A DNA stretch of 10,406 bases. Origin: a virus. Position numbers and translations under genes: made by a program. The notes below the pieces were generated by a model. It had not been told where the DNA came from. It saw only the letters and a program-made list of their open reading frames with translations, and did no database searches. Within the stretch, counting starts at the first letter, position 1. Each line of letters starts with the position of its first letter. Where the stretch lies: positions 1 through 10,406 of the IMG/VR virus record IMGVR_UViG_3300034782_000041. The stretch is one strand, 5' to 3'. Shown in pieces: positions 728 to 8,907 of the stretch.

Positions 728-1210
728 ATGGGGTCTACTGATAGGCTATTCGTACGCATGAGCTACGTCAAAGATCAACTGGCATTGGCGGCAGCCGAAG
801 GGGAGCCGAAACTTCCTACTTACCGAACTATCGCAGACGTTCTCGAAAAGAAGAACGGATCTGGTATTCGGTTAGCCGGATGGACAGTCGCGCGGACGTT
901 TCTCATCATGCCGGGAATGCTCGCGGTAGGCGTCTCACCTAAGAAGGCGTTTGTCGGATCTATCCTATCGTCCAGCCTGATCAGCATGCTCGCGTTGATT
1001 CGGATCTACAACGCAGGTTTCGCGGAAGATGCCGAACGTTGGGCACGCATGAAGCGCGCGCAGAAGCTCGAACGTTGGGAACGCCGTCAGGCGCCTGCGG
1101 CGTTGGGGAGTGGCTGGGAGAGGCGTCGGCAACGACAAGCAGGCCGCTACGAACAGCATCGCGCGCGGATTCAAGCTCGACACCTACGCAGGCGCCAACA
1201 ACAAAGGTAG
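728..1210 (+). CDS. Membrane protein (2-3 TM segments) with an extremely basic R/Q-rich C-terminal tail; start uncertain (TTG 722, ATG 728 or ATG 758)
   Basis: Hydrophobic segments (FLIMPGMLAVGV; FVGSILSSSLISMLALIRIY). TAG stop at 1208..1210 lies inside the SD of the next gene, indicating coupling. It is divergent from the 493..702 gene. Confidence 0.5.
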   Translation: MGSTDRLFVRMSYVKDQLALAAAEGEPKLPTYRTIADVLEKKNGSGIRLAGWTVARTFLIMPGMLAVGVSPKKAFVGSILSSSLISMLALIRIYNAGFAEDAERWARMKRAQKLERWERRQAPAALGSGWERRRQRQAGRYEQHRARIQARHLRRRQQQR

Positions 1211-2673: not shown

Positions 2674-2958
2674 TCAGATCTGGCCGTTGTGCGTTTTAGC
2701 CCAAAACAGTCGTCTGCACCATGAAGATCTCCAGGCACGCAGCTCGTCGTAGGTGTCGCCCTCATCACTAACTTCTGGATACGGATCGTAACCTAGCTCA
2801 GGCCACTCTCGATCCCACTCATCTAACCGATCCACGAGATCCATGGCAAATAGGCGCAGAAGAGTCGCGTAATCTACCAATGCCTGGCGATCCTCCGCCT
2901 TACTACCTTTCTCAGCCAGCACACGCTCACACAGTGCATCAAATTCACGTGTCCGCAT
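2674..2958 (-). CDS. Small acidic hypothetical protein (94 aa), co-oriented with and immediately upstream of the methyltransferase
   Basis: ATG 2956..2958. TGA stop at 2674..2676 abuts the MTase start (overlapping or a 6-nt gap), implying co-translation. Acidic, Trp-rich sequence with no recognisable motif. Confidence 0.55.
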   Translation of the reverse strand: MRTREFDALCERVLAEKGSKAEDRQALVDYATLLRLFAMDLVDRLDEWDREWPELGYDPYPEVSDEGDTYDELRAWRSSWCRRLFWAKTHNGQI

Positions 2959-3051
2959 GGATTAGGACCCTACCACGCAGAGCTGACAACGCTGTTTGTC
3001 ACACCGTCATGGTACAACCCGCGCATCAACGACTACCAAAGGTGATACACC
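2959..3051. promoter_or_regulatory. Divergent intergenic region (93 bp) containing a near-palindrome TGACAAC-GCT-GTTTGTCA (2984..3001)
   Basis: It lies between the starts of divergent genes (2958 minus, 3052 plus). The inverted repeat is one base away from perfect. -35-like hexamers (CTGACA, TTGTCA) are present. This is an operator/promoter candidate. Confidence 0.4.
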
Positions 3052-3540
3052 ATGGCAACAGCAGTCAGACGAAGAACCCAAGGACAGCCACAGGCGCAGC
3101 CGCAGCCGCAGCCAGCCGCGAAACCAGAATCGACCGGCAAGAAAACGCGCAACGTGCTCACTTGGAAGGAACGTAACCTCAAGCAGGCAACCAGAGCCAT
3201 GCAGTGGCTTGAACGGCTTGACGACGAGCTGGCACGTAGCAGCGTAGAGACAACAGATCCCGGCAGCACGAAGGTCTACCTCCAGGGGATCATCGAGACG
3301 TTGATGTCCACCGCTGACGAGTGGAAACCGGCGCCGAAGACGCGTAGCGCACTCAACGTCGGCGACACAATCACGTTCAAGGATGACACCGCAGTGCAAA
3401 ACTACGGCTTCATCGAAGCGGTTCATGAACGGATAGAGGGTGCTGTCGTGGACAGCGTGTTCGACAAGAACACCGTCATCGTGATGCTGAACGACGGCGA
3501 GAAGACGCTCATTCAGAAGCGTCACCTCCAGCGGTTGTAG
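3052..3540 (+). CDS. Hypothetical protein (162 aa) with an N-terminal basic/PQ-repeat region (QPQAQPQPQP) and a C-terminal small beta-rich domain
   Basis: ATG 3052 is preceded by AAAGGTGAT (SD) with a 5-nt spacer. Protein composition is sensible. The antisense ORF 3007..3576 has R/S/L-rich spurious-looking composition. Confidence 0.6.
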   Translation: MATAVRRRTQGQPQAQPQPQPAAKPESTGKKTRNVLTWKERNLKQATRAMQWLERLDDELARSSVETTDPGSTKVYLQGIIETLMSTADEWKPAPKTRSALNVGDTITFKDDTAVQNYGFIEAVHERIEGAVVDSVFDKNTVIVMLNDGEKTLIQKRHLQRL

Positions 3541-3541
3541 T

Positions 3542-5971
3542 CTAGCTTTCTGGCTGCGGTCGCTCAACCTCCTCAACGTCGATCACGTTCGAGGGCTGTT
3601 GTACCTCGACCTCGACCTCGTCGGTGAGGATCTTCACGCAGTCTACACGATACGGATCAGGCGCTTCGGGAAGGATCACGTCCATGAACTCCGCGAAGCG
3701 TCCCTGCTTGAACAACTCCTCGAAGGCCTGGATCTCGATTCCGTTCGCGCTGACGTAGTTGACGCCCTTCAGGATAGCGTCGATGGCTGCGCTCGGGTCG
3801 AGACCTACGATGTTGCCTTCCTCATCGATCACGCCTTCCTCAGCTAGCTGCGCGATCATTTGAGGATCACCGTTCGCTTCCTGGAAGCGTTCCAGGTTTT
3901 CGAGGAACGTCCGTACGCCAGTCCGTAGCCGCGTTACGGACTCCAAAGCTACGCCGAACCATTCCTCGTCGGTATGGCCTGCACGACGCATTGGGATGAC
4001 CTTCGCAGCCACCGTCTGGCCCGTTTTTGGGTCAGTCACGCCCTCGTCCATGTCGATAGGCGGTTTGGGTGCCGCAGGCTTTCCAGGCCGAGGTCGCGCA
4101 GTCGTTGGTGGCGGCGGCTCAGCACCGCTAAGCCCAGCTGTAGCCGCCGCACCGGGTTGATCTGACTTTCCGTTGCCTTTTCGAGTGGGCCCGGTGTGGC
4201 CGCTGCGCGTAGTGAACTCGGCGTCCTTCTTCGCCTGTGCTTGTTGAGCCGCTGCGGCTGCCGCCGCGGCTTGTGCTTGCATCGCGGCTGCACGAACTTG
4301 CGCTTCGCCCTGCGCCTTCGCGGCAGCAATGCGTGCTTCACTTTGTGCTTGGGCTGCTTTCATTCCGATGTAGCGCTCAGCCATCTCGCCGGCACGGCTC
4401 AGTCCCTGCTCGATGATTCGAGCAGCAGGCGGTTCTGGCGCTCCACCGGTCAGCTGTGCAACCTGTTCGATGGCATTACGCATCGTCCCGAAGATGCCGC
4501 CGAATGTCTCGGTGACGTTCTTCAGCAACATGTCGGTGCCCGAGCTGGAATCGCGGATGATGCCGGCGAGGGCCTGCGGCGTCATCATCATCTGTGCCAT
4601 GCGGTCGCTTGACATCTGCTGCATGCGAGCAATCTCGCGCAGGTTCTCTGCCTGCATGCGCGCCTGTTCCTGCGAGAGCCGCGCATTCTCCTTCATGTAC
4701 TCGACCATCGCATCGGGACGGTTCGCAGTCGCTTCCTTGAGTGCGATCTGCATTCGACCCTCTTGTTCGCGCATCTGCTGTGCAAGCTGTTCTTGCTGTC
4801 GCTGCGACTCCCAGCGTTCCCGTTCGTGTTGCTGCTGAGCTTGCTGGATCCGCGCCTCCTCATGCGCTTTCTGGATCTCCAACTCCAGCGTGCGAAGTCG
4901 GGGATCGTCGGTCGGCTTCTCAGCAATCTTGCCGATCGCCTCTTGCATTACCCGAAATTGCTGCGCGAGCTGATCGCGTTCCCGTTCACGTTCTACGCGC
5001 TGGCGTTCTTCACGTGCGCGACGAACCTCCTCGTTCTCTTTGTCCTTGTTGCCTTCCCCAAGCCGCCGGATTTCGTCTCGCAGCGTCTGCATCTCGCTGG
5101 CATGCTGCTGCTGCGCGCGTTCGAGCGCAGCCTTGTGCTCGATTTCTCGTTGGGCCAGCTCGCGCTGCCTCAGCTCTTCATCTCGACGACGAATCTCCTC
5201 TTGGAAGCGCTGACGCTCTTGCTCACGCTCCTTCTGACGCTCGCGCTCTTCCCGCTCGCGCTCACGCCGCTCATAGTCCCGCTCCCAACGGCGCGACGAT
5301 GAGCCGTTGTTGTCGCCGAAGCCACGCAGCGATGTCGGGTGGTACGGCGCACCGTACGGCGTCCCATACGGCTGAGGGTACGGCGGAGGCCATGCGCCTG
5401 CCGTATTCCAGGGACCCGGTTGTGGCAGCTGAGGGGCCTGCTGAGGGGCCTGCTGTGGCGCTTGTGGGGCCTGCTGCGGTAGTTGGTAGTTCGGGTAGCC
5501 GAACGTTGATGCTGGTGGAGGCCAGTGGGAGTTGCTCATACCAAACGGAACTCCTTGTTGCGAGACCGGTTGCGCAACGGGTGCTTGCTGTGGATTCACG
5601 GGCACACCCGCCGGAAGTGCCTGCGGGCTGAGTTGAGCAGCTGTTGCTTGATTCGGTGGGACCTTCTCAGGATAGGTGCGTGGATCGTAGACGCTCTCCC
5701 ACTTCATTGTCTCGCCGTTGGCATCCGTAACCGAGAAGATGTAGTAGCCGCCACCTGACCACTCGGTGAGGAGCCAGTTTTCCAGCGAGAGCACGTCTTC
5801 GCGCGACCAGTTCGTTCCAGGAGGGGCTCCGTCGCCTTTGCCTGGAATCTCGATGCTCATTGAGGAGGAGCCGCGCTTTTTCTGGACCCGCACGCTGATA
5901 GGTTCTTGCATGCGTTGCAGCTTCGCCTGATCGAATTCGAGGGGAGTCTTGATCCTGGTTGGGGTTGCCAT
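3542..5971 (-). CDS. Large (809 aa) low-complexity multi-domain protein: N-terminal globular domain, P/Q-rich linker, long ER/K-rich charged single-alpha-helix/coiled-coil, poly-Ala helix, G/P linker, C-terminal globular domain with an acidic tail
   Basis: Uninterrupted 2.4-kb ORF. Domains read directly from the translation. The N-terminal domain is aa 1-100, including NWSREDVLSLENWLLTEWSGGGYYIF. QAPQ repeats and PYG repeats span aa 100-215. RERERE/EELRQRE runs span aa 226-460. AQAQAAAAAAAAQQAQA is at aa 540-585. The G/P-rich linker is aa 586-650. The C-terminal domain is aa 660-780. Plus-strand ORFs across this span have typical antisense A/R/P/S composition. The RBS upstream of ATG 5971 is weak. 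Confidence 0.75.
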   Translation of the reverse strand: MATPTRIKTPLEFDQAKLQRMQEPISVRVQKKRGSSSMSIEIPGKGDGAPPGTNWSREDVLSLENWLLTEWSGGGYYIFSVTDANGETMKWESVYDPRTYPEKVPPNQATAAQLSPQALPAGVPVNPQQAPVAQPVSQQGVPFGMSNSHWPPPASTFGYPNYQLPQQAPQAPQQAPQQAPQLPQPGPWNTAGAWPPPYPQPYGTPYGAPYHPTSLRGFGDNNGSSSRRWERDYERREREREERERQKEREQERQRFQEEIRRRDEELRQRELAQREIEHKAALERAQQQHASEMQTLRDEIRRLGEGNKDKENEEVRRAREERQRVERERERDQLAQQFRVMQEAIGKIAEKPTDDPRLRTLELEIQKAHEEARIQQAQQQHERERWESQRQQEQLAQQMREQEGRMQIALKEATANRPDAMVEYMKENARLSQEQARMQAENLREIARMQQMSSDRMAQMMMTPQALAGIIRDSSSGTDMLLKNVTETFGGIFGTMRNAIEQVAQLTGGAPEPPAARIIEQGLSRAGEMAERYIGMKAAQAQSEARIAAAKAQGEAQVRAAAMQAQAAAAAAAAQQAQAKKDAEFTTRSGHTGPTRKGNGKSDQPGAAATAGLSGAEPPPPTTARPRPGKPAAPKPPIDMDEGVTDPKTGQTVAAKVIPMRRAGHTDEEWFGVALESVTRLRTGVRTFLENLERFQEANGDPQMIAQLAEEGVIDEEGNIVGLDPSAAIDAILKGVNYVSANGIEIQAFEELFKQGRFAEFMDVILPEAPDPYRVDCVKILTDEVEVEVQQPSNVIDVEEVERPQPES
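5400..5480. repeat. In-frame tandem ~12-nt repeats (GAGGGGCCTGCT-like) encoding the QAPQ repeats of the 809-aa protein
   Basis: gaggggcctgctgaggggcctgctgtggcgcttgtggggcctgctg is seen directly. Coding low-complexity, on the minus-strand gene. Confidence 0.6.
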
Positions 5972-6096
5972 AGCGTGACGATACGCAGAGTCTTAGTTGT
6001 GTGCAAGAAATTCCCGAGATCGCGTCCGCGATCAAACGCCGAACGGCAACAAATTCGGTTGCTGGGGGTAACCCAGCGTGATACCGATAGTTAACT
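5972..6096. promoter_or_regulatory. Divergent intergenic region (125 bp) with several inverted repeats: GATCGCG-TC-CGCGATC (6018..6033), GCAAC-N7-GTTGC (6046..6062), and a perfect 12-bp palindrome ATAGTTAACTAT (6087..6098) overlapping the ATG of the downstream gene
   Basis: Seen directly in the sequence. It lies between the start of the 809-aa gene (minus) and the start of the 6097 operon (plus). A partial direct repeat AGCGTGA(C)GATAC occurs at 5972..5985 and 6075..6090. Confidence 0.45.
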
Positions 6097-6516
6097 ATGG
6101 CGATTGACAGAATGATTGTTCCGAAGGATCGCGTGTTTGAACGCGGACGTGGTTGTTACAACTGCCGACACTTCGAGAACGGTGAACTCGCGCGCAATCA
6201 TTGGCGTTCCCGTCGGCCGCAAGACGAGATAGCAATCCTCGAACGCACTGGGGGCATCGCCAACCTGGGCACAATCTCACCCAACGATCAACGCTTCCAG
6301 TCACTAAATGACATGGAAAAAGCAGTGATGATGGGGCAGGCCGGAATGTGCATGGTGGGGAAAGTCCAAACAGACTTTGTGCACTTCAAATACCTCTGCG
6401 ACGCCTGGACTGGAAAAGAAGGTGCGTCAGCGGCAACCGAAGGACATCCGCTAGATCCACTACCTGCTGAGCTGAAAGAGATCGCAGAAGCCCGCGCGAA
6501 AAAGCACGAAGACTGA
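6097..6516 (+). CDS. Hypothetical Cys-containing protein (139 aa; GCYNC...CMVGK...C), first gene of a coupled plus-strand operon
   Basis: ORF with sensible composition. Its stop TGA 6514..6516 is followed one base later by the next ATG. No strong SD; the start lies within the AT-rich palindrome. Confidence 0.55.
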   Translation: MAIDRMIVPKDRVFERGRGCYNCRHFENGELARNHWRSRRPQDEIAILERTGGIANLGTISPNDQRFQSLNDMEKAVMMGQAGMCMVGKVQTDFVHFKYLCDAWTGKEGASAATEGHPLDPLPAELKEIAEARAKKHED

Positions 6517-6517
6517 G

Positions 6518-7030
6518 ATGAGTGAGTACACACCCGAGTACGTATTGGCTTCTGCGCTAACGCCGATCCTTTACGGTTTGGTTGCGTCCTCACTCTACTA
6601 TCTCGGCTCCCGAGCCAAGATCACGGAATTTCTCTGGTCACACTATCCACCGGCCTTCGACCGATTCATGATGTGCGCAGCATGTACAGGCTTCTGGTGG
6701 GGTCTTGGCGCAGCATTTGTGATCGGTTGGTGGCACGAGTTGCCATTTTTGTTGTTACCGGGTCGTTACTGGATGACGCCGGTCGTAGTCGCGCTCACTT
6801 CCGTTGTACTCACACCAGTTTTCGGTGCATTACACCTACGTGCACTTGAATATACGAATGCGATGCCCTTGGAGGAGTCCGAATCAACCCCACCAGAGCA
6901 ACCCAAGACGGTCATTAGTCCGTCAGCAGTTCTTCCAGCTGCCGGCAACCATCTTGGACGCCTCGGCGAATCGACCCCACTAGATCAACCCGAGATGGTA
7001 TCGTCGGAACAAGAGGACACTGATGGGTAG
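6518..7030 (+). CDS. Integral membrane protein (170 aa, 3-4 Trp-rich TM helices, acidic Ser/Glu-rich C-terminal tail); possible holin-like protein
   Basis: Hydrophobic segments: VLASALTPILYGLVASSLYYLG, FMMCAACTGFWWGLGAAFVIGWW and WMTPVVVALTSVVLTPVFGAL. Its ATG is coupled to the upstream stop. It overlaps the next gene by 8 nt. Confidence 0.6.
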   Translation: MSEYTPEYVLASALTPILYGLVASSLYYLGSRAKITEFLWSHYPPAFDRFMMCAACTGFWWGLGAAFVIGWWHELPFLLLPGRYWMTPVVVALTSVVLTPVFGALHLRALEYTNAMPLEESESTPPEQPKTVISPSAVLPAAGNHLGRLGESTPLDQPEMVSSEQEDTDG

Positions 7031-7457
7031 ACCACCGAAAAACCCGGACGCGCCATGGTGGCGAACCATCCGTGAGTGCGAGATAAGCATGATCAAGTAT
7101 GCCTTCACACACGCCCGCTCGGTTCGGCAAGCTGCAAAGGGTCTTGGGATATCAAGTCCATACTTGATGAGTAAAGCGAAGCAGTACGGGTGCACGCTTC
7201 CAGGGAAACCAACAACCGAGTCGAGTGAAGGACAAGTGAGCGATCAGGCGCCAAAGAAAACAAGAACACGTAGGAAGACACGTCGCAAGACGCGACGCAA
7301 AACCAATACGCCAAGCGCTTCGATCGACAACGTCGTTCCAATTAGCCGTGTTGACGACGTCGATGGCGAAAACTTCGATGACGACGACTTTGACGGCGAT
7401 AACGACGACTTCGGTGACGACGACTTCGACGACAACACTCCCGATCATGCGTCATGA
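7023..7457 (+). CDS. Fis/NtrC-type helix-turn-helix (HTH_8-like) DNA-binding protein with a (RRKT)3 basic repeat and a poly-Asp/Phe acidic C-terminal tail
   Basis: aa 15-56, IRECEISMIKYAFTHARSVRQAAKGLGISSPYLMSKAKQYG, matches the Fis-family pattern (xxALxxxxGNxSxAAxxLGISRxTLYRKLKKYG). KKTRTRRKTRRKTRRKT is encoded at 7254..7301. DDVDGENFDDDDFDGDNDDFGDDDFDD is encoded at 7353..7433. ATG 7023 overlaps the upstream gene; the stop overlaps the next start (ATGA at 7454). Confidence 0.65.
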   Translation: MGRPPKNPDAPWWRTIRECEISMIKYAFTHARSVRQAAKGLGISSPYLMSKAKQYGCTLPGKPTTESSEGQVSDQAPKKTRTRRKTRRKTRRKTNTPSASIDNVVPISRVDDVDGENFDDDDFDGDNDDFGDDDFDDNTPDHAS

Positions 7458-8070: not shown

Positions 8071-8907
8071 ATGACACCTAAACAAGTGCAGAAAGCTGCT
8101 GCGTTCAACGCCAGAGAGGCTAAGCAAGGCGACTACACGCAAAAGCATCAAGTACGGCTCATCGAGTTCTGGCAAGAGCATCACGGGCTGCTGGCCGACG
8201 GATGGTGCGGTGCGTTTACGCAAAAGTCGATTGATGGCAGTATTGCAGTAGACTGGAATCAAGACGTGCATGACATCTTGGCCAACGAGGACCAGTACGT
8301 TGACGGGTTGTGGCTTCCCTGGGATGGACCAGAGAAATCCCAGCCGAGAAACTACAAAGAGGCCATCGAGTTCTTTGGTAGGCCTGAGACACACAAAGGA
8401 TCGGATGTTCTCGACAGAGCTTGGTACAAAGCCAACATCGTTGAGTGTCACAAGAAGCTAGGCAATCAGCTTCCAGGTGTGCCAGAGCGGTGGTGGGTGA
8501 AAACGTACCGTCGATGCGAGCCCTACCTACGTGAAGGTCTACGCCGTGCTTCGCTTACATCTCCCTACCGCATTCAACGCTGTGGCGGATTCGTCTTTCG
8601 CCACATCCGCAACGACCCGGACAAAGACCTGTCCATGCACGCGTTCGGTGCTGCAATCGACTTCGATCCTGATTGGAACTACGCATACCAATACAAGCGC
8701 GGCGCCGACGTGCCCAAGGCCTGGTCACCTCAGTGGCTGAGAAAGTGGCCGAAGGGCATCGATGAAAAGTTCGTGCAAGCTATGGCTAGCTGCGGTTGGG
8801 CGTGGGGCTCGGACTGGGATGAGGACGGCCGCACTGACGACCATTTGTGGCAAGACCCGATGCACATGGAATGGATCGCCCGAGACGGCCGCAGTCGTAT
8901 GGTGTAG
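8071..8907 (+). CDS. Endolysin: N-terminal peptidoglycan-binding (PG_binding_1-like) domain plus C-terminal peptidase M15 (VanY / L-Ala-D-Glu peptidase-type zinc peptidase)
   Basis: aa 27-58 VRLIEFWQEHHGLLADGWCGAFTQKSI fits the PG_binding_1 pattern. SMHAFGAAIDFDPD (H190-x6-D197) and DPMHME (H265) form the M15 H-x6-D...H zinc triad. SD-like GAAGGG lies 12 nt upstream of ATG 8071. Confidence 0.85.
   Translation: MTPKQVQKAAAFNAREAKQGDYTQKHQVRLIEFWQEHHGLLADGWCGAFTQKSIDGSIAVDWNQDVHDILANEDQYVDGLWLPWDGPEKSQPRNYKEAIEFFGRPETHKGSDVLDRAWYKANIVECHKKLGNQLPGVPERWWVKTYRRCEPYLREGLRRASLTSPYRIQRCGGFVFRHIRNDPDKDLSMHAFGAAIDFDPDWNYAYQYKRGADVPKAWSPQWLRKWPKGIDEKFVQAMASCGWAWGSDWDEDGRTDDHLWQDPMHMEWIARDGRSRMV

Follow-up and report, generated by a model that had tools for sequence, protein, structure and literature searches.

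Architecture and conserved neighbourhood of C0, a modular 809-residue protein of an uncultivated phage lineage

Compactness is the rule among phage proteins, and it may be asked what a phage gains from one made up, over roughly half of its residues, of disordered linker or charged helix. Such a protein, C0, is encoded in the window analysed here, a stretch of 10,406 nucleotides from a viral record of IMG/VR (IMGVR_UViG_3300034782_000041). An earlier note on this DNA had described C0 as two globular domains kept apart by a long, rigid helix, in a possible scaffold or tether. The answer depends on whether C0 is a gene, how it is built and which genes accompany it.

Coding status and relatives of C0

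3542..5971, minus strand: C0, complete open reading frame of 809 amino acids (ATG at 5971-5969, stop at 3544-3542)

As had been claimed, this is the longest open reading frame in the window (809 codons; the runner-up has 388). An initial search returned 57 homologues, and an exhaustive one with the N-terminal domain as sole query gathered at least 239 clusters (50% identity), in which this domain was found only at the N terminus of proteins of 570-920 aa, and the length of C0 family members ranges from 568 to 920 aa. A long frame could also arise by chance in G+C-rich repetitive DNA, with the true genes on the plus strand, where several open reading frames of 138-296 aa do overlap C0; the earlier note had named the plus-strand frames as an alternative. 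The substitutions speak against it: between C0 and its 75%-identical homologue in locus L001, codon positions 1, 2 and 3 of the minus-strand frame differ 128, 92 and 409 times, with 309 synonymous and 170 non-synonymous codon changes. The same open reading frame was moreover predicted by independent gene callers on five contigs from different samples. The substitution pattern and these independent calls rule out the antisense frames of the plus strand as the real genes. Hundreds of full-length homologues keep the order of the domains and, with the N-domain family and the codon-position pattern, refute the reading of C0 as a chance frame, to which we give practically no probability. C0 is a real coding gene, strongly conserved in an uncultivated phage lineage.

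The claim that C0 belongs to no recognised family held throughout. Searches of Pfam, PHROGs, NCBIfam and PADLOC with the whole protein and with isolated N, M and C segments were empty, and neither terminal domain matched an entry of these libraries, of the PDB or of BFVD. With the domain profiles A2 and A5 no PDB match fell below E=0.015, and Foldseek found nothing in BFVD. The terminal domains thus gave no match to a known virion protein; such a match was what the earlier note had named as refuting its reading. PDB profile matches of the full C0 alignment (Mediator, dynactin, Nup214) were confined to low-complexity sequence and were dismissed as compositional. Tblastn and megablast searches of 50,697 phage records with the window and with C0, C1, C2, C3 and C12 as queries gave no accepted match, a single one at E=0.3 being rejected, and no cultured phage with a C0 homologue was found among these records. 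A scan of GTDB genomes yielded one scaffold of 5 kb in a Myxococcales MAG, and a common prophage was rejected on this ground. A word-indexed protein search with the C-domain profile recovered only a fragment of the query itself. No description of the family was found in the literature on single-alpha-helix (SAH) domains or condensates in phages. What these searches define is an orphan family, and a well-defined one, but not a mechanism.

Folded modules and variable spacers

C0 consists of three folded modules joined by floppy and by highly charged, probably helical spacers, and this modular architecture is conserved. From the N to the C terminus the parts, all on the minus strand, are as follows.

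5651..5944, minus strand: N-terminal alpha/beta domain (N), aa ~10-107 (AF2, pLDDT 75)
5306..5650, minus strand: P/Q/G/Y-rich disordered linker, aa 108-222 (composition, conserved P/W columns)
4712..5305, minus strand: E/R/Q-rich region of at least three segments, aa 223-420, predicted from its composition to be helical
4292..4711, minus strand: Met-rich helical middle module (M), aa ~421-560 (family alignment, AF2)
3983..4291, minus strand: A/Q-rich helix (poly-Ala), then P/G/A-rich disordered linker, aa 561-663 (composition, AF2)
3605..3982, minus strand: C-terminal six-helix acidic domain (C), aa ~664-789 (AF2, alignment A5)
3545..3604, minus strand: acidic C-terminal tail, aa 790-809 (charge)

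In the AF2 models, which covered the N and the M+C regions, the N domain has the order alpha-beta-beta-alpha-beta-beta. G73 and G75 are invariant and G74, Y77, D83, W91 and P105 nearly so, in the region of a 'WSGGGYY' loop. The linker that follows is 23.5% P and 16.5% Q and carries a short conserved WPPP motif and scattered conserved prolines. The M module carries the motifs DPMxExMKE, REIARMQ, MMxP, SSGxD and PPAARLIQEG; AF2 models it as helices (pLDDT 45-87), and its sequence has a strong 3.5-residue hydrophobic periodicity over aa 478-512. The P/G/A linker has a pLDDT below 50, and within aa 561-663 lies a conserved GLxGA motif. The C-terminal domain is the best-defined part of the model, with pLDDT 92-98 over aa ~665-784, six helices across aa 668-789 and a net charge of about -16; the tail adds -4 in the protein of the window (family median -9). 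No 19-residue window of C0 reaches a Kyte-Doolittle value of 1.6, and neither a transmembrane segment nor an obvious signal peptide was found. An HMM of the M module matched 168 of the 192 family sequences collected, and N, M and C were present together in 163; the others were mostly short and apparently partial, with a few divergent full-length proteins. The N- and C-terminal globular domains, the P/Q-rich segment and the poly-Ala and G/P linker of the earlier note are therefore all found again. Its outline of the composition was sound, but it had lacked the M module (aa ~420-560) and the acidic character of the C-terminal domain and tail.

The charged region had been described as an ER/K single alpha helix of about 230 residues. 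A charged region is present, probably helical and extended to judge from its sequence, but neither the length nor the continuity nor the lysine content agrees: its 198 residues are 21% E, 20% R, 15% Q and 4% K, the positive charge comes from 40 R and only 8 K, and two breaks with Gly or Pro (RLGEGNKDKEN at aa ~303-313, EKPTDDP at ~351-357) interrupt it. The residues flanking both breaks are conserved across the family. If a SAH is recognised by a density of opposite charges at i/i+3-4 of at least 0.6 per residue, such density combined with low hydrophobicity is confined to windows of 28 residues whose first residue lies at aa ~222-257 or 299-306 (0.61-0.71 pairs per residue, 60-68% charged, 7-18% hydrophobic). 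The corresponding hypercharged stretches, aa ~227-270 and ~299-333, lie between folded modules, as in ER/K SAHs, and the charge pairs (i to i+4) of an E/K/R-dominated stretch of at least 30 residues are there, formed with Arg rather than Lys.

The family alignment, however, sets this most SAH-like part apart. A SAH differs from a coiled coil in having no hydrophobic heptad seam. Among 150 members the columns of aa 227-258 reach an occupancy of only 42% and show no hydrophobic periodicity (p=0.99); most members lack the hypercharged RERERE stretch, a lineage-specific insertion. The conserved core of the region is amphipathic and covers aa ~258-305, whose columns are 91% occupied in the same 150 members and show a weak 3.5-residue periodicity (permutation p=0.04); over aa 258-305, 312-350 and 357-418 this weak periodicity has p=0.04-0.08 in the family profile. 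Conservation of the modules contrasts with the spacer between N and M, which in the 163 full-length members has anything from 167 to 412 residues, a 2.5-fold range; 33 to 249 of these form its charged-helix part. The spacer is not a fixed ruler, because its length varies so widely, and the idea of a rigid spacer of set length is not supported: C0 has breaks and a variable length in place of one continuous helix. From a typical ER/K SAH it differs in its use of Arg, in breaks with conserved flanks, in the absence of the hypercharged part from most members and in a total spacer length that is not conserved.

Gene neighbourhood and control region

Three genes and one control element recur around C0.

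6097..6516, plus strand: C2, soluble protein of 139 aa with four Cys (CxxC...C...C), divergent from C0, constant neighbour
6518..7030, plus strand: C1, small membrane protein with about three predicted transmembrane segments, constant neighbour
758..1210, plus strand: C3, protein of 150 aa, two segments of which are hydrophobic, with a basic tail rich in Arg (synteny, homologues)
6018..6033, no strand assigned: perfect palindrome of 16 bp, GATCGCGTCCGCGATC, in the promoter region of the divergent genes C0 and C2, at 47 bp upstream of the start codon of C0

The conservation of the neighbourhood, which the earlier note had proposed to examine, is evident. Each of the 20 independent loci, down to about 25-30% C0 identity, has C1 and C2 divergent from C0, and in 17 of these 20 C3 follows at 0.1-4.5 kb past the C0 stop; an inserted methylase block parts it from C0 in the window. 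The synteny of the four genes C0-C1-C2-C3 is conserved. C2 gave no family match. C1 has a CxxC motif in its second hydrophobic segment and an acidic tail, and one homologue gave a sub-threshold match to DUF1360 (E=0.03). C3 has at least 299 homologues, none with a name. In most relatives it is about 90-105 aa long, with a conserved N-terminal motif (LPTYRTxAxVLE..GSG..GWT), and one to two of its hydrophobic segments reach the threshold for transmembrane segments, depending on the homologue. The tail of C3 carries +3 to +20 charges, that of C1 is acidic, and the C-terminal domain and tail of C0 together amount to about -20; the charge complementarity between C0 and C3 is suggestive only.

In all loci C0 is on the strand opposite to both flanks, as a lone gene or short unit. 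The palindrome (GATCGC-N4-GCGATC) occurs once in the window, where 0.01 sites are expected, and recurs lineage-wide in intergenic gaps of related phages (10/10 in L002). Inspection by eye found palindromic GATCGC/GCGATC-like repeats upstream of C0 in several loci, and one subgroup has a sigma70-like TTGACA-17-TAGAGT there.

The surroundings within 10 kb on either side are mostly small accessory genes, regulators, anti-defence and nucleotide-metabolism genes, and enzymes; in the window an HTH protein is encoded at 7023-7457. A scaffolding gene would be expected next to that of the major capsid protein or prohead protease; no capsid or protease match was obtained within this distance in any locus, in a scan of some neighbours, nearly all of which are without annotation; among conserved neighbours in related loci PHROGs and Pfam recognised nothing but Transglut_core. 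An M15_4 endolysin-like gene (8071-8907) lies in the C1 operon about 2 kb from C0, and GH25 and PG_binding proteins are encoded in the equivalent operon of L003 and L001, but distance and type of endolysin vary between loci and in several none occurs within 10 kb. In L018 a tailspike-like K1-lyase_C protein is encoded 3-5 kb downstream of C0, and in L002 paralogous 306/630-aa genes with no assigned function follow it. The earlier statement that C0 sits between regulatory genes, outside a structural module, is correct in that no structural module is recognisable, but it missed the constant neighbours C1, C2 and C3 and the endolysin-like gene. The non-structural nature of the neighbourhood is weakly established, because nearly all genes are beyond annotation with PHROGs or Pfam.

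Possible functions of C0

A reading that accommodates these features, and which we put forward tentatively as possible rather than probable, is that C0 is an elongated cytoplasmic adaptor working with C1, C2 and C3. It would be a multivalent protein of a large uncultivated, probably lytic, phage lineage, in which the P/Q/Y linker, the E/R helices and the P/G/A linker give reach and flexibility but no set length. Together with its constant companions C1 (three transmembrane segments), C2 (four Cys) and C3 (two transmembrane segments and a basic cytoplasmic tail), it would link a small inner-membrane complex to a second partner in the cytoplasm. C1, C2 and C3 would then be physical partners of C0, and C0 would act in the cytoplasm during infection, not in the virion. 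Consistent with an adaptor, the N, M and C modules are conserved (163/192) while the spacers vary, and the WPPP and GLxGA motifs lie inside linkers; the four-gene synteny is conserved; C1 and C3 are predicted membrane proteins and C0 itself has no hydrophobic segment; C0, a lone or short unit on the strand opposite to its flanks with a palindrome upstream, would be transcribed apart; and the genes around it are not recognisable capsid or tail genes. Against it, a conserved order of phage genes can reflect mere inheritance of modules, and the K1-lyase_C gene of one locus is only 3-5 kb away. Without its fixed spacing, the generic scaffold or tether suggested earlier may still be the most economical reading of C0.

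Other systems of similar outline were compared. TolA and TonB also have a long charged helical and/or Pro-rich spacer that ends in a small globular C-terminal domain, and the small multi-pass membrane proteins encoded next to C0 formally recall TolQ/R or ExbB/D. However, C0 has no N-terminal transmembrane anchor or obvious signal peptide, possesses an additional N domain and a middle module, and its C-terminal domain falls outside the TolA_C/TonB_C family; neither C0 nor C1 matched the TolA, TonB, ExbB or MotA families in Pfam. ZipA and the polar hubs of the PopZ and HubP/FimV type are multivalent tethers or hubs and likewise combine a charged region, a P/Q-rich linker and a terminal interaction domain. 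No similarity of sequence or fold between them and C0 was detected; the C-terminal domain of ZipA is alpha/beta whereas that of C0 is all-alpha, and C0 has no membrane anchor.

C0 might instead be a virion or assembly protein, of scaffolding, internal/ejection or tape-measure type, whose long helices line or fill the capsid or tail as these are assembled. The gene belongs to the core of the lineage, and its product resembles scaffolds and tape measures in its length, high charge and largely helical make-up; its length varies in the family as in tape-measure families, and the tailspike-like gene of L018 and the paralogous genes of L002 lie downstream of it. A tape-measure gene, however, lies co-oriented in a tail module after a tail-assembly chaperone pair and before distal-tail or baseplate genes, whereas C0 stands on the opposite strand to both flanks with its own control region, among C1-C3, regulators and enzymes, and no tail-chaperone, distal-tail, capsid or protease gene was recognised beside it. 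The protein has no membrane segment of the tape-measure kind and no hydrophobic or Gly-rich segments; about 115 and 60 of its residues are Pro-rich disordered linker; and in place of the basic C-terminal coat-binding helix-turn-helix of P22 type there is an acidic six-helix domain with an acidic tail. PHROGs and Pfam gave no tape-measure or scaffold match and the fold searches no virion protein, so that we regard a role in the virion as rather unlikely.

Two further explanations take up single features of the locus. C3 and/or C1 could be holin- or antiholin-like, with C0, whose gene lies between theirs and upstream of the endolysin operon, as a cytoplasmic factor that regulates or assists the timing of lysis. 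In size, hydrophobic segments and basic tail C3 fits a class II holin, and C1, small and with several membrane passes, shares an operon with the M15_4 gene; GH25 and PG_binding genes stand in the equivalent operon of L003 and L001. Neither C1 nor C3 matched a holin family, though, adjacency to an endolysin gene is variable, and conservation of the N-terminal motif in C3 goes far beyond what is usual in holins; we know of no lysis regulator resembling a modular protein of 800 residues. A role of C0 in lysis is on balance unlikely, but with an endolysin-like gene nearby in several loci, C1 and C3 might serve lysis without any connection to C0. The composition of C0, on the other hand, would suit an organiser of condensates: the linker rich in Tyr, Pro and Gln and the helices rich in Arg would cause phase separation, and a phage 'factory' would gain its clients through the folded modules. 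Of the 115 residues of the linker 12 are aromatic and hardly any are charged; Arg makes up 20% of the region next to it, where R/(R+K) is 0.83 compared with 0.63 in the other proteins of the window, and the Arg-rich composition is kept across the family (median R/(R+K) 0.8). Phase separation during phage development is a very recent finding, reported for SPO1 (PMC13401047). But the argument is purely compositional, a G+C-rich genome favours Arg codons, and the E/R region is net neutral and likely to be helical rather than disordered, which makes a condensate organiser quite improbable.

To return to the adaptor, its most far-reaching form would have C0 and C1-C3 as a membrane-anchored organiser spanning tens of nanometres, possibly forming condensates, that brings one of the steps of infection, be it replication, assembly or lysis, to the inner membrane of the host and is regulated via the lineage-wide palindromic operator. 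This would be an undescribed phage machine conserved across a large uncultivated lineage, and we see only a slim chance that it is correct in full.

A core protein of some 800 residues, conserved in hundreds of clusters and without a relative in the curated libraries, marks a real gap in phage biology. The four-gene module and its palindromic operator offer experimental handles in a lineage that has no cultured member. If C0 does bridge a phage membrane complex to a cytoplasmic target, it would be a spatial organiser of a novel type within bacteria infected by phages, and also a natural extended-helix spacer based on Arg and Glu, distinct from the E/K type of eukaryotes.

Coding status and distribution of the C0 family

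The gene for C0, the protein under study, is an 809-codon ORF with an ATG start (3542-5971, minus strand) and the longest ORF of the window; the second longest encodes a DNA methylase of 388 aa. In a codon-wise comparison with the homologue of the related locus L001 (75% identical), differences at positions 1, 2 and 3 numbered 128, 92 and 409, and 309 codon changes were synonymous versus 170 non-synonymous. Independent pipelines also predicted the exact protein on five contigs that come from different samples; a 35-kb JGI contig is among them. The ORF singled out in the earlier note is therefore real and coding, and the substitution pattern and the independent gene calls exclude an artefact. 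Because C0 is coding, the overlapping plus-strand ORFs, once considered as possible genes in its place, are antisense artefacts of G+C-rich DNA.

A word-indexed search returned 57 full-length homologues with identities of 24-75%, all unnamed. When a profile of the N-terminal domain was run exhaustively over 1.84 billion representatives, 239 clusters matched at E<=0.001, 201 of them at E<=1e-10; in the best 150 of the 239 matches the domain lay at or near the N terminus of proteins of 570-920 aa, or of shorter, apparently partial ones. Twelve IMG/VR viral contigs (30-221 kb) carried the gene. Among the 185,579 species genomes of GTDB it was present on one 5-kb scaffold only, from a Myxococcales MAG; C0 is therefore a phage gene and neither a common prophage gene nor a cellular one. 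The sole organism labels among family members were the MAG bins Tepidisphaeraceae (Planctomycetota) and Myxococcales (P0236, L016); these are weak hints at the host, because short contigs from phages often end up in the wrong bin. Neither for C0 nor for its conserved neighbours could a homologue be detected among the cultured phages in INPHARED.

C0 had no matches in Pfam, PHROGs, NCBIfam and PADLOC and gave no tape-measure or scaffold family signal. Sequence-profile searches of the PDB were negative, as was Foldseek against BFVD (best E 0.35). The earlier note had raised the question of whether the terminal domains resemble known virion proteins; they matched none in the libraries searched. 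C0 thus represents a protein family that has not been described, with a general architecture of a known class.

Domain architecture and the charged region

Regions of C0 by composition
aa 1-107: mixed composition
aa 108-222: P 23.5%, Q 16.5%; nearly without charge; 12 aromatic residues
aa 223-420: E 21%, R 20%, Q 15%, K 4%
aa 421-560: rich in A/Q/M/E/R
aa 561-600: Ala 37%
aa 601-660: rich in P/A/G
aa 661-790: acidic, net charge -16
aa 791-809: acidic tail

AlphaFold2 models built on sub-alignments of the family gave an N-terminal domain (N, aa ~10-107) of the order alpha-beta-beta-alpha-beta-beta (pLDDT 75), a helical middle module (M, aa ~420-560; pLDDT 45-87) and a C-terminal domain (C) with six helices over aa 668-789 (pLDDT 92-98 at aa ~665-784). 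Linkers were below 50. The whole of C0 contains no hydrophobic segment.

The charged region had been described as an ER/K single alpha helix (SAH) of ~230 residues acting as a ruler between globular domains. It is charged and, from its composition, probably helical, and a SAH-like charge pattern with very low hydrophobicity was found at aa ~227-270 and ~299-333 only. However, its basic residues are mainly Arg rather than Lys (40 R versus 8 K), and it is broken by two Gly/Pro-bearing interruptions, RLGEGNKDKEN (~303-313) and EKPTDDP (~351-357), the residues beside both of which are kept across the family. Among 150 aligned members the RERERE stretch (aa 227-258) showed 42% occupancy and no hydrophobic periodicity; aa 258-305 were 91% occupied, with weak 3.5-residue periodicity and a conserved sequence (consensus L..L...E.E..E..H.A.LER ... 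L..E.RR..E).

HMMs for the three modules, run on 192 collected family sequences, found all three in 163. The N-to-M spacer measured 167-412 residues (median 232) with a charged-helix content of 33-249 residues, and the M-to-C spacer 31-133 residues. With spacers this variable, C0 is no ruler of set length.

Gene neighbourhood and upstream control region

C0 was divergent from C2, followed by C1, in each of the 20 independent related loci. In 17 of them C3 lay 0.1-4.5 kb past the stop codon of C0, in most cases on the opposite strand.

Conserved neighbours of C0
C2, 6097-6516: soluble, 4-Cys protein
C1, 6518-7030: ~3 TM segments, CxxC in the second hydrophobic segment, acidic tail
C3, 758-1210: highly conserved N-terminal LPTYRT...GSG..GWT, two hydrophobic segments, Arg-rich tail (+3 to +20)

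C3 had at least 299 homologues, all unnamed; one C1 homologue gave a sub-threshold match to DUF1360 (E=0.03).

A perfect palindrome of 16 bp, GATCGCGTCCGCGATC, lies at 6018-6033 in the 125-bp region between C0 and C2 (one site in the window versus 0.01 expected). Copies of GATCGC-N4-GCGATC numbered 10 in L002, 8 in L004, 5 in L007 and 3 each in L001 and L021, and across phages of the lineage they fell almost only in intergenic gaps. All 10 in L002 were intergenic by JGI gene calls (6287, 8103, 8122, 9963, 12386, 14466, 16818, 19496, 19560 and 21934), and most of them preceded a start codon, on one strand or the other, by 15-40 nt. The motif resembles an operator, or an element associated with promoters, that is shared across the lineage. 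C0 thus has a control region of its own, as part of a putative regulon of the whole lineage, and is not simply read through from a late structural operon.

By eye, a sigma70-like TTGACA-17-TAGAGT is present upstream of C0 in the L002, L004, L007 and L016 subgroup; in the window a weaker TTGCAC-17-TATCGT (within 5972-6010) ends 6 nt before the ATG. A promoter consensus scan found nothing reaching its threshold. The nearness of the TTGCAC-17-TATCGT element to the ATG, together with the lack of a Shine-Dalgarno sequence (read by eye in 5972-6010), would suit an mRNA with little or no leader.

Inserted between C0 and C3 in the window are a methylase block (1507-2673), an ORF of 94 aa and a convergent gene of 162 aa (3052-3540, plus strand) that has a Q/P-rich N-terminus and abuts the C0 stop by 1 nt. 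Gene callers chose the latter over a longer ORF (3007-3576, minus strand), whose AT skew and GC3 suggest that it is spurious. The block 2674-3576 is a recent insertion, since more distant relatives have no counterpart.

Farther along the operon divergent from C0 lie a weak HTH_50 protein (7023-7457, plus strand) and a 278-aa protein with a Peptidase_M15_4 domain (8071-8907, plus strand; E=6.5e-7), a likely endolysin; equivalent operons carry GH25 or PG_binding proteins. The HTH_50 protein has an extremely acidic, Asp/Phe-rich tail, DDDDFDGDNDDFGDDDFDD, coded by 15- and 21-nt tandem repeats (7356-7442). The 121-aa and 188-aa ORFs after the peptidase gene both lack TM segments, so an obvious spanin pair is absent there.

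Besides small genes, the following Pfam-assigned and other products occurred around C0 loci.

Products within +/-10 kb of C0 loci
Regulators (Pfam): GerE, HTH_8, HTH_17, MerR
Pfam: DSPc phosphatase, VWA proteins
Pfam: peptide deformylase, transglutaminase-like proteins
Pfam: dCTP deaminase
L020 20494-20715: Acb2/Tad1-hairpin anti-defence protein (Pfam)
L018 15052-17013: K1-lyase_C tailspike-like protein (Pfam), one locus only
L017 1-825 and 7356-8141: SNF2 helicase (Pfam) and nucleoside deoxyribosyltransferase/DUF7768 protein

Possible roles of C0

We tentatively suggest that C0 is a cytoplasmic, elongated, multivalent adaptor, the most likely of the readings considered but possible rather than probable. 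Its three conserved modules and short conserved linker motifs would bind different partners, with reach supplied by the flexible P/Q linker and the E/R helices; by arithmetic, 198 residues if fully helical and the 115-residue linker if extended could span up to ~30 nm each. C0 would act together with two membrane proteins conserved alongside it, C1 and C3, and with C2, the 4-Cys protein, and its strongly acidic C-domain and tail could plausibly contact the strongly basic C3 tail.

That C0 is instead a virion or assembly protein seems unlikely: the orientation of the gene and its separate control region, the absence of family or fold matches, long linkers rich in Pro and an acidic C-domain all argue against it. 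Within +/-10 kb of C0 loci no gene for a capsid, portal, terminase, tail-tube or chaperone protein could be recognised, which is weak negative evidence because PHROGs and Pfam annotate almost nothing in these genomes. A part in lysis, with C3 or C1 being holin-like, is more doubtful still. Least probable is a condensate-forming organiser, suggested by the Tyr/Pro/Gln plus Arg composition as its one basis; this reading overlaps with the adaptor model.

As an adaptor C0 would resemble several known systems in its way of working. It is like SAH-containing spacers, but its charged region is no single continuous helix of set length; like TolA and TonB, but without a TM anchor or a TolA_C or TonB_C family signal; and like ZipA or hub-type tethers, although it lacks a TM anchor and does not share all their defining features. 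For a phage protein C0 is unusual, and its conservation is deep; the four-gene module together with the putative operator provides concrete features that can be tested.
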